Source: a virus
Virus record (IMG/VR): IMGVR_UViG_3300038466_000014
DNA: 64,000 nt
Reading direction: 5' to 3' (one strand)
Every line of letters begins with the position of its first letter. The first letter of the stretch is position 1. The notes below the pieces were generated by a model. It did no database searches, had not been told where the DNA came from, and was given only the letters and a program-made list of their open reading frames with translations. Position numbers and translations under genes: made by a program. This document shows positions 33,739-51,825 of this stretch, one piece after another.

Positions 33739-36315
33739 CTATTCATTTTCTACATTTTCATCCAATGTTAAATCAATTCCTTTATCGATCAGCCAGTCTC
33801 CCATCTGAATGAATATAGAATCGGTATCTGTATACAAAAGATACTTTATTAATTTCTCTTTATACCCTTCGGCAAATTCAGGATCAAAGTTTATCTCATT
33901 TGTCTTCATATACTCAGAAACATGATATCCGAGAAACTTAATTACTTCCTGTCCGGTAAGAGTAATAGACATTGCCAAATCATAGTTAAAGAATCTGAAT
34001 CCGGAATTTGCCAATACTCCATATAGGGCATTAGCCAAAATTTTATAAGCTGTTTGAATATTGTTATAATATTTCTCTTGTTCTTTCTCTTTACTTTTAA
34101 CATATACCTTCATCATATCTTTATATGTAGTACGCGAATCCATCAGATATTTCAGAATACTGTAAAGAAATGATAGCTCCTCATCATGACCTTTATATAT
34201 ACATCCGTTTATGGTTATAATATAATTATTGTCTATAATCCATTTTTCAAATTCATTATATGTAAATTGTTTTTCAATCATATTGTATAAAGGATCTAAA
34301 TATACTATAAAGTTATCTTTGTATCTGGATTGAATTTTATGTATAAAGTAATATGCCACATCTGTATCTACTTTCGCTACAAATGTATTTGGGCCTATGT
34401 TACAGCTTCTGACAATAGACGGATATAGAGACGTAAAGTCAAAGTCTATAACCCATTTATGAATTCCTGGTATTGGTTTTCTCACCACTGCTCCAGGAAT
34501 CTTAAACTTTTCTCCGATCTTAGGTCTGTTTCTGCATACACAATTTGAATTTTTGGCGTAAGACAACACCAGAGGATCCAGCAATCCAGTAGTGGTTTCT
34601 GCGGATCCCCAAGATGACGCGCAAATACGAATCAATTCATATTGTAACGATATATGTCCAAGTTTCTTGTCCAGTTCGTATAGAAGATCTGTATCGGTCT
34701 GCGAGTATTCCACGAACTTATGTATATCCTGTTCATATACGTGATCCAAGGTTCCTTCATAGGCAACTTTATCTTTTGATATATTTACTTTGGCTATGTG
34801 GGATAATTTATATGTGGGTTCTTTTCCCTGAGCAAATTTCTTATATAAAAACATCATATCCGGTATAGCTATTCCCGCTATATATGCCTTTTTAATATTG
34901 TTTATATCAAAACTCGCTCTTCCGACAGGAGAAATCTCGTTGAATGATATATGATTCTTTCGCATCCGCATAAACAAGGTTGGTATATCGAATGTAGATG
35001 TATTCCATCCTGTCAATATATCGGGCAATTCCGATTTCAATACTTTTATAAAATATAATATTAATTCTTTTTCAGTATCGAAAATTTTAACATCTTTATT
35101 ATCTAAAGATACCCCTGAATTTTTTATAACCCCTATGTCGTATATCAGCACCTGTGTAGGAGTATCTCCCATTTTATAAGATATGGCGTTTATCGGCGCA
35201 AGAGCGGTTTCCGGTCTGGGAAATGATTTTTTATGATCGTTCCACACCTCCATATCCCAATACATAGTCTTAAGATTGTAATTCTTTTCTGATAAATTTC
35301 TGAGAGTTTTCTGATAAAAATAGTCTATGGAATGTCTAAGATTTTTTTGCACATCGAATTCATATACTCCTACCTCATCACTTGGTTTTGTATCGAACCG
35401 GACAACGGCGTTTTCAACTTTTTCGACAATATCTGAAAAATCGAATGGTTTCTTTCCCTCGTAAAAATATCCATGATCACTCGATAATAAGTAAAACTTT
35501 TTTTCTTTTGTTTTAGCATTAACAAATGTGAAACAAATCTCTCTGGTCGCCTTTAAATTTTGACAGTCAATATATATCATATCGGGATCAAACATCCATT
35601 CCGGATAATTGAAATAAGTTATTGAATTATTTACTATAGAGTCCGGGGATTTATATTGCATTATATATTTAACGGCACTCTTAAAATCATTTAGAAATGA
35701 TTGATAGTCCTTTGTAAGTTTGCCATCAGTAGTTCTTATACCGCCATTTCGTTTCACGTAGGATGGGTGTGTCGTAATCATCACATCTCTTCCTTCAAAC
35801 TTATGGATCGTCCCCCCTTCCTGTGTTATCTTTTTAACGGATATACCAAGGGCTTTTGCTGAAGAATTACCCATGGCTAAAATCAATTTAGGATTGGTTA
35901 TTTTTATAATCTCAAGAAGATTGTTTCTGCAAAATGTATACGCCTCCTCTGGAGGATTTGCAGTGATCCATTTTTTTCCTTTTTTAGATAAGTTCGAACA
36001 TAAACATACATTGGATATGAATAGATTCAATTTACTCATTCCTGATTCAGTTTCCGCCGATCTGTATATGCTTCCGGCTCCTCCGATCAAAGGTCTTCCG
36101 GATTGCACTTCCTCATAGGCTGGAGCTTCTCCAAGGACCAGAATGTCTATATCTCTAATATACTCTCTATTACATTCTCCAGGAACTATCGGTTGTTTAT
36201 ATAAAGGACAATCGAAACAATTGGTAAATGGGGACTTCGGATTACTAATATTTCCCTCCTTTATAAAACAATTAAAATTTGAAAATCCTGTCAGATCTTG
36301 GCACCAGTCCAACAT
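33739..36315 (-). CDS. polB: Split family B DNA polymerase, large subunit: family-4 UDG + 3'-5' exonuclease + palm/fingers (true start possibly ATT at 36249)
   Basis: CFDCPL, GEAP, SNVCLC, HPSY (UDG4); WDMEV, GWNTSTFDIP, YSQTD (exo); DFDFTSLYPS, KILANALYG, YTDTDS. Confidence 0.93.
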   Translation of the reverse strand: MLDWCQDLTGFSNFNCFIKEGNISNPKSPFTNCFDCPLYKQPIVPGECNREYIRDIDILVLGEAPAYEEVQSGRPLIGGAGSIYRSAETESGMSKLNLFISNVCLCSNLSKKGKKWITANPPEEAYTFCRNNLLEIIKITNPKLILAMGNSSAKALGISVKKITQEGGTIHKFEGRDVMITTHPSYVKRNGGIRTTDGKLTKDYQSFLNDFKSAVKYIMQYKSPDSIVNNSITYFNYPEWMFDPDMIYIDCQNLKATREICFTFVNAKTKEKKFYLLSSDHGYFYEGKKPFDFSDIVEKVENAVVRFDTKPSDEVGVYEFDVQKNLRHSIDYFYQKTLRNLSEKNYNLKTMYWDMEVWNDHKKSFPRPETALAPINAISYKMGDTPTQVLIYDIGVIKNSGVSLDNKDVKIFDTEKELILYFIKVLKSELPDILTGWNTSTFDIPTLFMRMRKNHISFNEISPVGRASFDINNIKKAYIAGIAIPDMMFLYKKFAQGKEPTYKLSHIAKVNISKDKVAYEGTLDHVYEQDIHKFVEYSQTDTDLLYELDKKLGHISLQYELIRICASSWGSAETTTGLLDPLVLSYAKNSNCVCRNRPKIGEKFKIPGAVVRKPIPGIHKWVIDFDFTSLYPSIVRSCNIGPNTFVAKVDTDVAYYFIHKIQSRYKDNFIVYLDPLYNMIEKQFTYNEFEKWIIDNNYIITINGCIYKGHDEELSFLYSILKYLMDSRTTYKDMMKVYVKSKEKEQEKYYNNIQTAYKILANALYGVLANSGFRFFNYDLAMSITLTGQEVIKFLGYHVSEYMKTNEINFDPEFAEGYKEKLIKYLLYTDTDSIFIQMGDWLIDKGIDLTLDENVENE

Positions 36316-37060
36316 CCTCAGACAGCGGTTTTAAGAAATTGGATATACGTATATCCCAGGAAAATTCAATCATCTTATCAATATCTATTATGTAATAACT
36401 CGGAAGAAATTCCTCTTCGTATGGCATAGCAATAGCATTTCCAATTTTAATTCCTTCATCTATTAATTTCTTAATCCTGTCAGGAGATTTCATATAGTTA
36501 ATACCCTCAATATTAAACATATATCCTTTAGTACCTTGTTCGAAATATGGATATTCCAGTTTATTCCATAATTTCATACTTCTAATATGCATCGTCTGTG
36601 TTTTGTACTCATCATCATTTTTATTAAAATGGACAGGACGGGCAGCCTTCTTACTTCCTTCCAAAATACCAGTGATAAGTATTTCACGAGAGTCTGTTAT
36701 GAATTTAGCAATCTTTTTAAAATCTATATAGTATTCTCTAACAAGCATATCGAGTAACATAGACAATCTTTCTTTAGTAAATTCGGGATAATCCGATCTC
36801 CTAACCTCAATACCTTTATTCTCCATTTTATCCACAGGATCTTTTTCTTTATTTATGATGTGCAACGAATATTTCTTTCCCACTCCTGGGAAATATCCGG
36901 TATCTGCGACTAATTCCTGTTTGGCGTCAAAAAGATTGAACTTATCTTTGATATTATGTTTTCTGCCAAACTCCAGCGCTATAGGTACAATCGCGTTGGC
37001 TTTTATATTTTCAGCCTCTTTTAAAATAAGCGCAACGAGGTCTTCTTTTTTGATGCTCAT
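36272..37060 (-). CDS. Split family B DNA polymerase, C-terminal (thumb) subunit
   Basis: KQELVA...KKYSL, KGIEVRRSDYP: motifs that normally follow YxDTDS. Confidence 0.88.
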   Translation of the reverse strand: MSIKKEDLVALILKEAENIKANAIVPIALEFGRKHNIKDKFNLFDAKQELVADTGYFPGVGKKYSLHIINKEKDPVDKMENKGIEVRRSDYPEFTKERLSMLLDMLVREYYIDFKKIAKFITDSREILITGILEGSKKAARPVHFNKNDDEYKTQTMHIRSMKLWNKLEYPYFEQGTKGYMFNIEGINYMKSPDRIKKLIDEGIKIGNAIAMPYEEEFLPSYYIIDIDKMIEFSWDIRISNFLKPLSEDVGLVPRSDRIFKF

Positions 37061-38050
37061 CGGGCACCGCCCGATGATTCCAGTTGAACCGCCTTTTCGG
37101 AACTCTGGTTTGGCGGACCACCAATAGACCGCACGGCTGAAACACTGTGTCCAACCGTTTGCTCATAGAGAAACCACCCATTGGCAGAAACATTAAAGGC
37201 CGCGTTTGAGTCTCTATGGTCAAAGTGAGAACATGAACATTTGTAGTTCTTTCCGTTTGGTTTGTTGATACTTCCGCACCTTGAGCAAACCTGACTTGTA
37301 TAAGCAGGATTTACGAAGAAGATTGGTATGCCAAGCAAAGATGCTTTGTATTTGATAAAGGTTTCCAAAGCAAAACGATGTGATTTGGCATAGTCAACAA
37401 CGGAACGACTCACTTTATGATTGATATCTTTAACTCTGTTTGACTGTTTACTTCTGATTTTCTTTAAAGCATCTTTAGCACCTTTCTTTTGTAAGTTCTT
37501 TCTTCTATTGCGGAAACTTTTAGTTATTCCAGACACATCTGGACCTAACTTCCTAACCTTTCCAGACATAACATCCGCACAAACCACAACATTCTCCACA
37601 CTGTTTCTATCAACTCCAAGAAATCCTTGAATTTTCTGTTCTTGTAAAACAGGAGTGTTGTAAGAGTAGGATATAAACCATTGCCCATTTCTTTTGAAAA
37701 ACTCTGCCTGTCTAATAAAACCAGAAATGGTTTTAGGAAATACAACAGGCAAAATAGATTTTTTGAAGAAGGCTGGGATTCGAATACCACCATCTACAAT
37801 CTTTACTTGTTTTCCTTTATCACCGCAAACAGGTAAAACAAGATTTTTGACCTGCTTGATCTTTTTGTTTCTCTGATATTTAGAAATAAGACTTTTAGCA
37901 AGAACACAAGGTATCTCTTTGTAATATTTAGAAGAAGATTTAGTTCTGTCTTCTATCATTCTGTTTACACAAACAGAAGCTTTTTGGTATAACTCGTCCA
38001 AAATAGGAGTAAGATTGTGAGGTATAACGACCTTAAAAGTAAGACACATT
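37057..38050 (-). CDS. tnpB: TnpB RNA-guided nuclease homolog with RuvC-II segment missing (ORF track extends to 38127)
   Basis: FLGVDRN, NHKVSR, YKA, VNPAYTSQVCSRCG, DHRDSNAAFNV; no LEDL region. Confidence 0.9.
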
Positions 38051-38415
38051 GTAAGTTCTTTCTCGTATACCATGTTGTGTTTGTAACCAAGTTTCGCTAT
38101 AAAATTTTCCATCAACACATTCTCCAAGATTTGATTTTAACTCTTCCAGAAATGGCTAAACAAATGTCTGTAAATATTTCTGAAATAAACGGTGAAGAAG
38201 ACCACATACATTTTCTTTTGGAAACAACACCACAAGACAATCTTGGTGGTGTTATAGGGGCACTAAAAGCACGGTCTTCTTCGTATCTACACGACAAATA
38301 TATCTTTCCATATTTGGGAAAACATTCCAGAACTCTTTGGTCTTCTGGGTATTTTATAGTATCCACTGGCGGTGCTCCTTTAGATGTTATTAAAAAGTAT
38401 ATCCAAAACCAATAA
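38017..38415 (+). CDS. tnpA: IS200-type HUH Y1 transposase
   Basis: YHVVFVTKFR, EEDHIHFL, LWSSGYF, IKKYIQNQ. Confidence 0.95.
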   Translation: MRYNDLKSKTHCKFFLVYHVVFVTKFRYKIFHQHILQDLILTLPEMAKQMSVNISEINGEEDHIHFLLETTPQDNLGGVIGALKARSSSYLHDKYIFPYLGKHSRTLWSSGYFIVSTGGAPLDVIKKYIQNQ

Positions 38416-38488
38416 TAAGTATTAAATCCTACTTGTCAAGAGCCTAACCCCGAACACCGTTCGGGGATTGCGGCTCTAATACTGTTGA

Positions 38489-39154
38489 TTACACCTCCGT
38501 ACCAACCAATAGCTCCAGGTCTATATCACTATGATCCGAAAAAAATCTATCATTATCAACTTTTATATTTTTATTAAATAATTTCAAATAGTTTAACATT
38601 GACATAAGATCATCTTTATTATCTTCTTTCTCTATAATATCATTCACCGCCTCTAAAGCCAAATATTCTTTCCCGGATAATTTTTGTAGTTCGGATAGTT
38701 CCTTCTTAGAAATCTTTTTCTTTTTGTACTCGTTTAACTCCAAGTATTCCATCACCCCTGAATCGTTTTCTTCTTCTATTTTTTTAATCAATAGCTGTAA
38801 TTCGTATTTTTTTAGTAGTGGAAACTTCTGATGTAGATGTTGGATTTTCTCATCCACAGACGTAAATTTGAAAAACGATAAATCTTCTTTCTTTATATTA
38901 TAATACCGAATAAATTTCTTAAAGTATAAGAAAAATTCTGTATCATCTAATTTAAAAATATTATAATCGTTAAAATAATCATTTATAAAATCTGTTATAT
39001 TATCCATATAACCAAACATTGCTATAACAGATCTTTTTGATATTTGTTTTTGGATAACTGGATCGAGTGGAACATTTATAGGCTGATATAATAACCAATA
39101 TTTGAATTTAGCATATGGAGAATACTGTTTACCGCGTTCTTCTCCACCACTCAT
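38489..39154 (-). CDS. Hypothetical protein
   Basis: ORF in replication operon. Confidence 0.5.
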   Translation of the reverse strand: MSGGEERGKQYSPYAKFKYWLLYQPINVPLDPVIQKQISKRSVIAMFGYMDNITDFINDYFNDYNIFKLDDTEFFLYFKKFIRYYNIKKEDLSFFKFTSVDEKIQHLHQKFPLLKKYELQLLIKKIEEENDSGVMEYLELNEYKKKKISKKELSELQKLSGKEYLALEAVNDIIEKEDNKDDLMSMLNYLKLFNKNIKVDNDRFFSDHSDIDLELLVGTEV

Positions 39155-50745: not shown

Positions 50746-51375
50746 TTAATATACTACCTTATTATCTTCTATTATCTTAATAATAGAATTAATCATCTCA
50801 TCGGTTATAGTATTACTAATATTTGTAAGATAATTTGACAGTTCCGTTATATAAGCAGGTCTATTTCCTCTATCCATAGACTCAATCCTATCTTTTTCTA
50901 GAGGATCACATGCACCAATATGTAATAGCAACATCTTATTAATATACTTATATGTATAAAAATAAATTGCCACAAGTAATTTTAATAAATCCTTATGTGA
51001 CCATTGTTCTATATGAGGAATCATACTAATATTATCAGCATCAAAACTTATACTATAATGTAATAACCACTCATTAGAAATACCACCAACCTTCTGCATA
51101 TTACGTATGTCTAAAATAATACCTACCAACATTCTTAATTTGTTCTGCATAGATGTATCTTTAGGTAGTGGTATTATACAACGATTAATAGTAGAGCCTA
51201 AACACGTTTCAAATTTGCATAACTTTGGTATATAAAAATCATCTATCTTACAAGTACTAATTGTTTTAAAAATAAGACTATTATCATCTATAAGTTTCTT
51301 TACTACTTTGAGTATTATATCAGAGTTATAATGGTATGTATCCAAGTCAATGGGTGTCATATATTTGATGTTCAT
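50746..51375 (-). CDS. Hypothetical protein; C-terminal part of a gene split by the mini-element
   Basis: SD and first codons (MNI) lie inside the element right end. Confidence 0.6.
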   Translation of the reverse strand: MNIKYMTPIDLDTYHYNSDIILKVVKKLIDDNSLIFKTISTCKIDDFYIPKLCKFETCLGSTINRCIIPLPKDTSMQNKLRMLVGIILDIRNMQKVGGISNEWLLHYSISFDADNISMIPHIEQWSHKDLLKLLVAIYFYTYKYINKMLLLHIGACDPLEKDRIESMDRGNRPAYITELSNYLTNISNTITDEMINSIIKIIEDNKVVY

Positions 51376-51511
51376 TGAATACCTCCCGATGATTCCGGTC
51401 TGGAGATCTCCGGCCTTTCGGCGTGAGTTCCAGCGTTAATGATCAATTTAATCCTCCTTGTTTACAGAGCCTAACCCCGAACACCGTTCGGGGATTGCGG
51501 CTCTAATACTG
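51365..51511 (-). mobile_element. 147-bp non-autonomous IS605 derivative (PATE/MITE-like)
   Basis: 48 nt identical between 51466-51513 and 38439-38486; right end GGAATCATCGGGAGGTATTCAATGAACATCAA resembles GGAATCATCGGGCGGTGCCCGATGAGCATCAA. Confidence 0.88.
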
Positions 51512-51825
51512 TTCATATAATCGCGCCCATATAAATTTGATTTTTTATTTAAAATGGCACACACAAATTCTATTAATCTGTATTTCGCGATAGAAATATC
51601 TCCGGTAGTTATAATATAAGGATTACCAGCATTATCCAAATATACTTTGTCGAGAAAAATATCTAAAATTATTTCCTCTTCTTTCAATCTTTTATATTTA
51701 TCAACAATCGTATATTTTACTTTAATATTTTCCTCGGTTAACATCTCTTGTTTATATAATCCTTGAGTAATTTTAAAATCTGTATCTATTAGTTCGACCG
51801 AATGTGGCTTTGTAATATTATTCAT
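51448..51825 (-). CDS. Hypothetical protein; N-terminal part of the split gene
   Basis: Last 21 aa and stop are encoded by the element left end. Confidence 0.6.
   Translation of the reverse strand: MNNITKPHSVELIDTDFKITQGLYKQEMLTEENIKVKYTIVDKYKRLKEEEIILDIFLDKVYLDNAGNPYIITTGDISIAKYRLIEFVCAILNKKSNLYGRDYMNSIRAAIPERCSGLGSVNKED

Follow-up and report, generated by a model that had tools for sequence, protein, structure and literature searches.

An IS200/IS605 element that interrupts a DNA polymerase gene of a virus probably replaces the start codon of that gene, in frame, with an ATG carried at its own right end, which leaves the host gene readable without splicing. The element lies in IMG/VR virus record IMGVR_UViG_3300038466_000014, of which a stretch of 64,000 nucleotides (the window) was analyzed, and the window also contains a short derivative of it, copy 2 (Table 1). 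Translation from the right-end AUG and a mechanism that couples it to tnpB are suggested by the sequence, and we infer that the right-end ATG evolved as an adaptation and did not arise as a lucky by-product.

Table 1. Features of the element, its second copy, and the adjoining genes (window coordinates; LE and RE, left and right end)
Feature	Position	Strand	Remarks
Element, IS200/IS605 member	38484-37050	minus	1435 bp; tnpA, tnpB, and subterminal hairpins
Left-flank target pentamer ATCAA	38489-38485	-	ATGAA flank in 21/27 related insertions
LE, begins CAGTATTAGAGCC	38420..38484	-	Same LE in loci L001-L013
tnpA, Y1 HUH transposase, 132 aa, GTG start	38017..38415	+	PF01797 Y1_Tnp, E = 1.6e-29
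tnpB, 351 aa, ATG at 38112	37057..38112	-	PF07282, E = 2e-18
RE subterminal hairpin UCAUCGGGC-GGU-GCCCGAUGA	37057..37077	-	-16.2 kcal/mol, z = -2.6
Right-end tail ATG-AGC-ATC-AA	37050..37060	-	ATG = 37060-37058
Stand-alone PolB thumb/palm C-terminal subunit, 262 aa	36272..37060	-	Opens at right-end ATG
Large PolB subunit (UDG, exonuclease, N-terminal palm)	33739..36315	-	Downstream of thumb gene
Copy 2, 147-bp MITE-like derivative	51511-51365	-	LE intact, RE hairpin destroyed
24-codon mini-ORF within copy 2	51372..51446	-	TTG start; ends at TGA of ATGA
Host ORF, 209 aa, MNIKYMTPID...	50746..51375	-	Now opens at copy 2 right-end ATG

Read along the minus strand, the element begins at 38484 with CAGTATTAGAGCC, after the left flank GGAGGTGTAATCAA. 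Its LE contains a guide-like CAAT (38470-38467) and a hairpin, CCCCGAAC-GGT-GTTCGGGG (38466-38448), within an outer stem AGAGCC/GGCTCT that covaries in one relative, L005 (AGAACC/GGTTCT). The PF01797 match of tnpA spans profile positions 5 to 121 of 121, and the HxH (HIH) and tyrosine (SSGYF) motifs are readable in the TnpA sequence; tnpA is divergent from tnpB, with an antisense overlap of their 5' ends. The window TnpB retains RuvC-I, RuvC-III, and the zinc ribbon. At 37368/37369, where contigs from other samples part from the window tnpB, it has a 28-aa in-frame deletion (an 84-nt gap relative to its relatives) that takes out the RuvC-II LEDL glutamate; RuvC-II is kept in the relatives (alignment with P0011). 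Despite this deletion, the ORF stays open up to its TGA (37059-37057). Judged from its predicted protein, the window copy of TnpB is nuclease-dead.

The right end, with its hairpin (as DNA, CATCGGGC-GGT-GCCCGATG), reads CATCGGGCGGTGCCCG-ATG-AGC-ATC-AA, where ...GCCCG precedes the tail ATG and the last base is at 37050; the flank AAAAGAAGAC follows. The TCAA of the tail is presumably the right cleavage site. As the first-pass annotation of this DNA had noted, the tail is in frame with the polymerase gene, and the tnpB stop overlaps its ATG as ATGA. That annotation had placed the element at 37050-38498; the right boundary holds, but the upper coordinate takes in 14 nt of flank, the true start being 38484. 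In the window there are exactly two occurrences each of the LE hairpin and the RE motif, where 0 to 0.1 would be expected, so they are not there by chance.

In family B polymerases, the part that corresponds to the thumb ORF is the C-terminal third (Pfam DNA_pol_B positions 281 to 350; phrog_262 positions 598 to 823 of 856). Since the large PolB subunit is adjacent, the interrupted operon is that of the replicative polymerase. Read from the right-end ATG, the thumb N terminus is MSIKKEDLVAL; its ancestral form was presumably MKKEDLVAL, and the homologous stand-alone thumb gene in locus L137 starts ATG AAA ACC GAA GAA (MKTEEEL). On the upstream side, the first A of the target pentamer is the final base of the stop TAA (38491-38489) of the preceding ORF, and the ancestral site may well have been TAATGAA, a stop-start overlap. 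The target had been proposed at first as AT(G/C)AA. Its G form stands (ATGAA in 21/27 insertions), but its C form is limited to copy 1 of the window; the C at position 3 is more likely to have arisen by mutation of ATGAA once the element was in place than to represent a second type of target, because it is unique to this copy and mismatches the guide-like CAAT of the LE. With the left-flank ATG now ATC, the polymerase thumb gene is predicted to be dependent on the element for its start codon.

The boundary of the element was examined in 30 further independent insertions gathered from viral and metagenome contigs; 32 elements keep the right end, and the left flank is readable in 27 sites (the LE of L024 was not located, and the left side is truncated by the end of the locus or contig in L017, L021, and L029). 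Seen by itself, copy 1 is ambiguous, as its left flank ATCAA is the same as the ATCAA of the right end, so ATGAGCATCAA could be host sequence or a target duplication. This reading has a negligible probability: 32 flanks unrelated to each other all follow the same 11-nt tail, and the left flanks are ATGAA, not ATCAA, in 21/27 sites, so that no duplication took place. It is refuted by the per-column information across the 32 elements, which is 1.4 to 2.0 bits as far as the final A of ATCAA and drops to 0.0 to 0.4 bits beyond it. Similarity ends exactly after ATCAA, and the ATG therefore lies inside the element.

The tail has the form ATG-ARY-ATC-AA in all 32 elements, with ATGA and ATCAA invariant, so that the conserved ATG at a fixed distance from the end is a property of the homologues as well. 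Searches with the RE pattern include the ATG by construction. Searches with the LE pattern, where the tail is not required, gave 11 independent elements, with the ATG tail in 10/10 of those that have a right end; the eleventh, L011, is decayed and lacks one. Protein-based look-ups gave ATGA-N-YATCAA in 11/12 loci. Two TnpB lineages that are only about 30% identical have this end and the C terminus LESSGGAR in common, the latter being found in 72 of the 120 best TnpB homologues, and fossils without an LE still keep the right-end tail. TnpB homologues number about 830. The family is almost confined to viral or metagenomic contigs: among 185,579 species genomes, the LE pattern has 0 matches and the RE pattern 1 (a MAG), and in viral contigs the 16-nt RE pattern gave 92 chance matches and one new element only. 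The element has no DNA match in cultured phages, where tblastn with TnpB gives only homologues of <33% identity. In viral contigs, no close relative of either the thumb gene or the 209-aa ORF turned up, and the thumb homologues were at most 50% identical. Empty-site alleles of both window insertions were not recovered from viral contigs or a sequencing-run index; no run in the index contained the window locus, word shares being 5 to 8% and due to related IS copies, and reads of four such runs yielded pieces of related elements, with no joint that spans the element.

The 27 left flanks comprise ATGAA (21), TTGAA (3), and one each of ATGAG, ATGAT, and ATCAA, with TGAA in 24/27. The right-end TCAA is not a copy of the flank, and insertion takes place 3' of a conserved motif without target duplication, the IS200/IS605 mode assumed from the beginning. 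When the empty sites are reconstructed, 13/27 have a target ATG that comes first among the in-frame starts of an ORF of at least 50 codons, compared to 76/780 ATGAA sites (9.7%) in the background for the same test (P = 3.8e-7), i.e., an approximately five-fold enrichment at start codons, with starts called by a simple ORF rule. At 19/32 sites, an ORF of at least 60 codons begins with the right-end ATG, vs 25.5% in the background (P = 5e-5), and independent gene callers place the start of the following gene at the ATGA overlap for 9 of 12 loci picked solely by how long their contigs were. The original proposal, that an ATGAA target is in many cases a start codon followed by AA, whose frame is restored by a right end of the form ATG-N6-AA, thus agrees with the position of the insertions, which is not random, and with all 32 tails. 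Genes kept downstream of the element code for the PolB thumb, a DnaG-like primase, an NT5C nucleotidase, an RF-1-domain protein, PBP1A, dCMP deaminase, an SNF2 helicase, a methyltransferase, and a glycosyltransferase; matches of these genes to Pfam profiles, where present, begin at the N terminus.

About 40% of the insertions are away from gene starts. Those in L003, L004, L010, L021, and L029 are inside ORFs in another phase, L005 and L007 are near gene 3' ends, and L018 is intergenic. For the five other-phase insertions, a GTG in the RE loop (GTG-CCC-GAT-GAG-CAT-CAA) was considered as a rescuing start; its position puts it in frame, but L005 lacks it (loop GGC), nothing further supported it, and the idea was dropped.

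Copy 2 follows ATGAA (51516-51512) and ends in GGGAGGTATTCA-ATG-AAC-ATC-AA (tail ATGAACATCAA; ATG at 51375-51373), again in frame with the downstream ORF, as originally described. Its mini-ORF is a remnant of a lineage-2 tnpB, with the first codons joined to the last 20; it resembles the 3' end of the L005 tnpB in a comparison by eye and has its own SD, AAGGAGG (51459-51453). The empty site reconstructs as a single continuous 311-codon ORF, so that this insertion may have hit an internal Met and not a start. No homologue of the 209-aa ORF was found, and the halves flanking copy 2 have no PHROGs or Pfam match.

The public gene call for the 209-aa ORF begins at its second ATG, five codons on (204 aa), and the ORFs opened by the right-end ATG are short in L129 (27 codons), L020 (25), and L017 (31). 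Such cases would fit the view that downstream genes use other starts or are being lost, which would make the in-frame ATG irrelevant. As a general explanation, this is very improbable: past the junction, the next in-frame ATG, GTG, or TTG of the thumb gene is 166 nt (55 codons) downstream, many diverged copies of the element are followed by long intact ORFs of essential function, whose Pfam matches start at the N terminus, and the tail is retained even in fossils lacking the LE. Replacement of the start codon by the right end accounts for these features better.

The right end had also been credited with supplying an SD. The in-frame ATG of that claim stands, and the SD holds only in part: intact ends carry GGCGGTG, one mismatch from GGAGGTG, and in the RNA both this SD-like GGCGGUG and the AUG are inside hairpins of -16 to -17.5 kcal/mol, whose stem is maintained where bases have changed, by compensation in L127 and by wobble pairing in L121 and L124. 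Because the ATG and the SD-like sequence are buried in this way, translation of the host gene is most likely coupled to termination of tnpB, by termination-reinitiation at ATGA. All derivatives in which the right-end ATG heads a host gene keep a tnpB-frame ORF that ends at the TGA (24 codons in copy 2, 42 in L014, 47 in L016, 22 in L022, and 166 in L019), and in the LE-less fossils L014, L022, and L125 this ORF is opened by the native ATGAA itself. A clearer SD-like sequence is found only in two hairpin-less copies, as GGAGGT in copy 2 (within GGGAGGT, 51387-51381) and GGAG in L125, 5 to 8 nt upstream of the ATG; both copies retain the ATG and the tail.

The ATG is also part of the hairpin stem, of the TnpB C terminus and stop, and probably of an omega-RNA 3' scaffold. 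Given these three other roles, its conservation alone is no proof of selection for host translation. The rescue could be real without being an evolved strategy, with an ATG that exists for the hairpin, TnpB, and omega-RNA and lies 11 nt from the end by chance, and with start-codon insertions being those that compact phage genomes tolerate. Indeed, the ATG belongs to the hairpin stem and to the CGA-TGA end of tnpB; TGAA would follow from the LE guide CAAT as TCAA would from the RE guide GAAT (a sequence reading, by analogy with PMC3201880); and the loss of lethal insertions alone might produce the enrichment at start codons, with about two-fifths of the insertions being elsewhere and some of them inside genes. 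However, the LE hairpins of most copies have another stem without ATG (CCCCGAAC/GTTCGGGG), so the ATG is not required for TnpA binding. Furthermore, ATGA does not vary even though it pairs with different partners (CAT, CGT, CGC), both the ATG and the tail persist in immobile hairpin-less copies, which have gained SD-like sequence, and the two TnpB lineages agree in the spacing (11 - 5 = 6 nt) and in the ATGA overlap. A by-product sifted by survivorship is accordingly rather unlikely, though by far the strongest of the alternatives, and an adapted right end is the preferred reading.

The adapted right end would act as follows. TnpA inserts the element immediately 3' of (A/T)TGAA. As ATG-AAN is a very frequent gene start in these AT-rich genomes, many insertions split codon 2 between its second and third bases. 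The last 11 nt of the element, ATG-ARY-ATC-AA, would replace the lost ATG-AA, keeping the host ORF in frame with two extra codons (M-S/N-I-K/N...) and codon 2 rebuilt from the element's AA and the host's N. The phage operon transcript would read through the co-oriented element, and ribosomes on tnpB, or on its mini-ORF remnant, would melt the RE hairpin, stop at UGA, and reinitiate at AUG; in an immobilized copy, the hairpin could decay into an ordinary SD. A broader scenario, for which we would give slightly less than an even chance, is a "start-codon prosthesis" in which a start-mimicking target, an ATG-resupplying right end, and tnpB coupling are combined with a TnpB gene drive among co-infecting phages and become irreversible once the native ATG decays. 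In such a drive, TnpB would cut the empty allele, with the start-codon motif as the TAM and the first codons of the gene as the guide. Decay of the orphaned native ATG, as at the polymerase gene of the window, would leave the host dependent on transposon sequence for initiation.

If true, this would be a third route, besides introns and inteins, by which a selfish element becomes harmless in an essential gene, and it would help account for the persistence of IS200/IS605 elements in the compact genomes of lytic phages. It predicts N-terminal signatures (M-S/N-I-K/N) and ATGA overlaps that annotation pipelines have already called, with their origin unnoticed. Transposon expression would be tied to host-gene expression, because translation of tnpB would be needed for the host gene product. 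The scheme suggests an evolutionary ratchet that turns a parasite into an indispensable sequence, and it offers a natural template for placing cargo at the start of a gene that stays functional.

The element resembles IS608 and ISDra2 in having a Y1 HUH TnpA and a TnpB, subterminal hairpins, no inverted repeats, and insertion 3' of a fixed motif of 4 to 5 nt without duplication. Its cleavage sites are at distances of 18 nt (on the 5' side of the LE hairpin) and 8 nt (on the 3' side of the RE hairpin); those of IS608 are 19 nt (left) and 10 nt (right) from the hairpins (PMC3201880), so that both share a left cleavage about 18 to 19 nt away and a right site, TCAA, a few nucleotides 3' of the RE hairpin. 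In line with the IS608 principle (PMC3201880), a putative guide tetranucleotide is found 5' of each hairpin foot: by sequence, CAAT at the LE goes with the target TGAA and GAAT at the RE with the site TCAA, and guide position 1 and site position 2 covary in a single C/G difference. Unlike in IS608 and ISDra2, the target is ATGAA, a start-codon motif, and an invariant ATG 11 nt from the tip, overlapping the tnpB stop, replaces host starts in frame. Such replacement by IS608 or ISDra2 is not described in the literature searched, which also holds no precedent for a transposon end that replaces start codons.

IStrons, which combine an IS605/IS607 TnpB with a group I intron (e.g., CboIStron), are likewise TnpB transposons that lessen the cost of residence within a gene. 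The IStron omega-RNA region overlaps the host-gene junction, and transposon maintenance and host expression may compete (10.1101/2023.11.20.567912). In the present element, the 1435 bp are fully occupied by tnpA, tnpB, and the two ends, with no intron core, and Rfam gives no family for positions 36900 to 38600 at E <= 1, neither group I intron nor omega-RNA, in line with the earlier suggestion that the insertion is tolerated without splicing, unlike IStrons. The rescue would act at translation initiation, only at the 5' end of a gene, and at the price of two extra residues, whereas IStrons leave a scarless mRNA.

Homing-endonuclease introns and inteins are similarly selfish and silent in essential phage polymerase, primase, and helicase genes, and they encode a nuclease able to cut the empty allele (PMC13565253). 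However, they owe their silence to RNA or protein splicing and not to replacement of a start codon, and homing by TnpB is hypothetical here, with the window TnpB lacking the RuvC-II glutamate.

Finally, some IS elements supply outward or hybrid promoters to neighboring genes; these are transcription signals that usually alter the expression of an intact gene. Like them, the element described here has an end that gives the adjacent host gene an expression signal. In contrast to them, this end provides the in-frame initiation codon itself, to a gene whose start was removed.

The window derives from a 180,230-bp public contig and has a phage-like arrangement, with all of its long ORFs closely packed on the minus strand. 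Its IS200/IS605 element, 1435 bp in length, precedes a gene for the thumb of a family B DNA polymerase. At its right end, the tnpB stop and an ATG overlap as ATGA (37060-37057). The thumb ORF begins at this ATG with M-S-I-K-K-E-D, and the element terminates past the AA of codon 4. The second copy, a 147-bp MITE-like derivative (51511-51365, minus strand), has an identical left end, and its right end, GGGAGGTATTCA-ATG-AAC-ATC-AA, continues in frame into a 209-aa ORF. These junctions confirm the observation in the first-pass annotation that both right ends open the downstream ORF in frame. Its interpretation, that the right end donates a Shine-Dalgarno (SD) sequence and a start codon to the interrupted gene, is supported by the sequence comparisons, with the details of the SD and the target amended.

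Features of the element and its surroundings, in window coordinates
Feature	Position	Strand	Remarks
221-aa ORF	39154-38489	-	Function unassigned; first in gene order around the element
Element	38484-37050	-	Between the 221-aa ORF and the 262-aa thumb ORF
Left tip of element	Starts CAGTATTAGAGCC	-	Sequence
Left hairpin, CCCCGAAC-GGT-GTTCGGGG	Starts 18 nt inside left tip	-	Sequence
tnpA	38017-38415	+	Strand opposite tnpB; PF01797, E = 1.6e-29
tnpB	38112-37057	-	PF07282
Right hairpin, CATCGGGC-GGT-GCCCGATG, then AGCATCAA	Ends 37050	-	Sequence
262-aa PolB thumb ORF	37060-36272	-	Pfam DNA_pol_B positions 281-350; phrog_262 positions 598-823 of 856
858-aa ORF	After thumb ORF	-	UDG, exonuclease, and N-terminal palm in one fusion

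In the 262-aa ORF, similarity to family B polymerases (Pfam and phrog_262) is confined to the C-terminal third. The window polymerase (33739-37060, minus strand) is split and permuted in order: the gene for the thumb and C-terminal palm lies upstream of the UDG-exonuclease-palm gene and overlaps it by 44 nt. Stand-alone thumb proteins of 263-270 aa are also found in other metagenomic phages, and relatives L134-L138 likewise have a separate thumb. In more distant relatives the polymerase is unsplit; in L139-L142 it is encoded by one gene of 875-1059 aa.

Related elements were collected by left-end and right-end pattern searches and by a protein search with an intact TnpB, which gave 829 homologues at E <= 1e-20; 12 loci, selected solely on the length of their contigs, were then inspected. 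The resulting 32 independent insertions that retain a right end, including both window copies, are nearly all on viral or metagenome contigs. Among 185,579 species genomes, the right-end pattern has one match (a MAG) and the left-end pattern none. The elements encode two TnpB lineages, one with a divergent tnpA and the other tnpB-only, which are only ~30% identical but have common ends and a common right-end-encoded C terminus, LESSGGAR. Identical left and right ends occur across these lineages (L005, L010, L023, and L024 versus L001, L003, L004, L009, and the window), and in the L010 copy part of the tnpA 3' end survives behind the left end. The ends behave as an exchangeable module. In L123 (2129-2175), the left end bears a right-end-type hairpin, CGTCGGGC-GGT-GCCCGATG, in place of the usual CCCCGAAC stem, showing that one hairpin can stand in for the other with the transposase. 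A diverged copy (~65% DNA identity) on a contig labelled as a bacterial MAG (L025) occupies the start codon of a gene for a class A penicillin-binding protein (641 aa, anchored in the membrane by its N terminus), so the element is not strictly confined to phage genes. A decayed copy (L011, 3829-4060, minus orientation) consists of a left end and ~40 codons of lineage-2 tnpB, with no right end; unrelated sequence and several tRNA genes follow.

When the 32 right ends are aligned at the junction, information stays at 1.4-2.0 bits per column as far as the final A of ATCAA and falls to 0.0-0.4 bits beyond it. Because it drops only there, the ATG lies inside the element, and a boundary that excludes it, a possibility raised in the first-pass annotation, does not fit. 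The last 11 nt (the tail) most often read ATGAGCATCAA, as in 21 of the 27 copies whose two flanks are available, the rarer variants being ATGAGTATCAA (4), ATGAACATCAA (2), and ATGAATATCAA (1), with the consensus ATG-ARY-ATC-AA. In the searches that do not demand it, the tail is present in all 10 right-end-retaining elements found by left-end patterns and in 11 of 12 protein look-ups; the exception, L122, has lost this end. ATGA is constant while its stem partners differ (CAT, CGT, CGC), and most left-end hairpins have another stem without ATG; TnpA binding by itself therefore fails to account for the constancy of the ATG.

At the 27 sites with both flanks available, the left pentamer is ATGAA in 21, TTGAA in 3, and ATGAG, ATGAT, and ATCAA in one each; of the proposed target AT(G/C)AA, the G form therefore prevails and the C form is limited to window copy 1. 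The tail has its ATG 11 nt from the tip, and the target spans 5 nt; given this 6-nt difference, insertion at any target whose ATG serves as a start codon restores the frame and adds two codons. Empty sites were rebuilt by joining the flanks, and the target ATG was scored as a start if it was the first in-frame ATG, GTG, or TTG after a stop and was followed by at least 50 codons. This holds for 13 of the 27, compared with 9.7% of the 780 same-strand ATGAA sites in these loci (binomial P = 3.8e-7), in line with the suggestion that start codons are hit. In L009, L016, L022, and L023, the site is at most 14 codons from such a start or is cut by the contig end. By a cruder measure, the right-end ATG opens an ORF of at least 60 codons at 19 of 32 sites, against a background of 25.5% (P = 5e-5), and in 9 of 12 loci public gene calls, made independently, place the start of the next gene at the tnpB stop minus 3. 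Typical empty sites have an SD and/or the stop of the upstream gene directly ahead of ATGAA: AGGAGG, 10 nt, and ATGAA in L119; TAA and ATGAA in L126; and ATGAATAA, overlapping the end of clpP, in L127. In L025, ATGAA is followed by the signal-anchor sequence of the 641-aa PBP1A. Affected genes include those for the PolB thumb, a DnaG-like primase, NT5C, an RF-1-domain protein, PBP1A, dCMP deaminase, an SNF2 helicase, a methyltransferase, and a glycosyltransferase.

Enrichment at start sites can also arise from selection against lethal insertions alone. Some 40% of the insertions lie away from gene starts. These include five within ORFs in the other reading phase, after GAA (L003, L004, L010, L021, and L029), two close to gene 3' ends (L005 and L007), and one intergenic (L018); the third phase is impossible within genes because xTGAA would hold an in-frame TGA. 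Start-codon replacement may be the evolved purpose of the tail or a by-product. The sequence GTG-CCC-GAT-GAG-CAT-CAA in the right-end loop and stem (37067-37050, minus strand) shares the reading frame of the host ORF at all five insertions after GAA. This GTG could serve as a restart codon there, or it may be incidental, since GCG stands in its place in L005.

The empty site of the thumb gene would read GGAGGTG-TA-ATC-AAA-AAA-GAA-GAC and has no in-frame ATG, GTG, or TTG for 166 nt. With G for C, it would contain TAATGAA, a stop-start overlap after a GGAGGTG SD, and encode MKKEDLVAL; the L137 homologue, also a stand-alone thumb gene, opens with ATG AAA ACC GAA GAA, encoding MKTEEELIQIVLKE. As the ATCAA flank is unique among the 27 sites and mismatched to the putative left guide CAAT, it probably arose from ATGAA by a G-to-C mutation once the element was in place. 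In that case, exact excision would now strip the thumb gene of its start, and left-end cleavage may be impaired. Removal of copy 2 leaves a single unbroken 311-codon ORF (50746-51825, minus strand; ATG at 51825), so this copy may have cut a gene in two at a Met-Lys within it instead of hitting a start. The products may be a 104-aa N-terminal part with a 21-aa tail encoded by the left end, and a C-terminal part of 209 aa with its new start at the right-end ATG; no homologues of either part were found.

In intact ends, the AUG and an SD-like GGCGGUG, 6 nt upstream with one mismatch to GGAGGUG, lie within a hairpin of 9 bp (predicted energy, -16.2 to -17.5 kcal/mol). The in-frame start codon stands, while the donated SD is only SD-like and hidden with the AUG, and free initiation there is unlikely. 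Instead, the AUGA overlap suggests that ribosomes finishing tnpB would terminate at UGA and reinitiate at the overlapping AUG. All internally deleted derivatives whose right-end ATG opens a host gene retain a tnpB-frame ORF ending at TGA, of 24 codons in copy 2 (with its own AAGGAGG SD), 42 in L014, 47 in L016, 22 in L022, and 166 in L019; this is weakly consistent with termination-reinitiation (~(1/3)^4, with only four short remnants). Fossils lacking a left end are found in L125 (2495-3641), where a 377-aa TnpB sits between dnaB-like and SNF2 helicase genes, in L014 (2783-2914), and in L022 (minus strand, the last 47 nt ahead of the NT5C gene). There, the tnpB ORF, or what is left of it, starts from the SD and native ATGAA of the host and runs to an ATGA overlap with the host gene, as fits the same model. 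It also accommodates copy 2 and L125, where the hairpin is destroyed (-4 and -5 kcal/mol) and the ATG and tail are retained, with GGAGGU or GGAG 5-8 nt upstream. What we infer from these sequences is that translation starts at the right-end AUG and is coupled to tnpB.

An 84-nt in-frame deletion has removed 28 residues from the window TnpB, among them the RuvC-II LEDL glutamate, and leaves its ORF open through to TGA. At their 5' ends, tnpA and tnpB are antisense to each other over 96 nt (38017-38112), which could allow mutual antisense control.

No report of a right end that replaces host start codons was found in the IS605/TnpB literature searched, which spans part of the journals, and the relevant sections of the Meers/Sternberg, IStron, Halanaerobium, and OMEGA-review papers describe none. 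The element is not an IStron, as no intron model matches it. It agrees with the sequence-level features of IS200/IS605 that could be checked, and its layout of hairpins and cleavage sites is as in IS608, where the left end is cleaved 19 nt 5' of its hairpin and the right end, at TCAA, 10 nt 3' of its own (PMC3201880). On the 5' side of the hairpin foot, the left end has the tetranucleotide CAAT and the right end GAAT; the putative cleavage sites are TGAA and TCAA, respectively. The lone C/G difference covaries between guide and site, as would be expected for IS608-like pairing.
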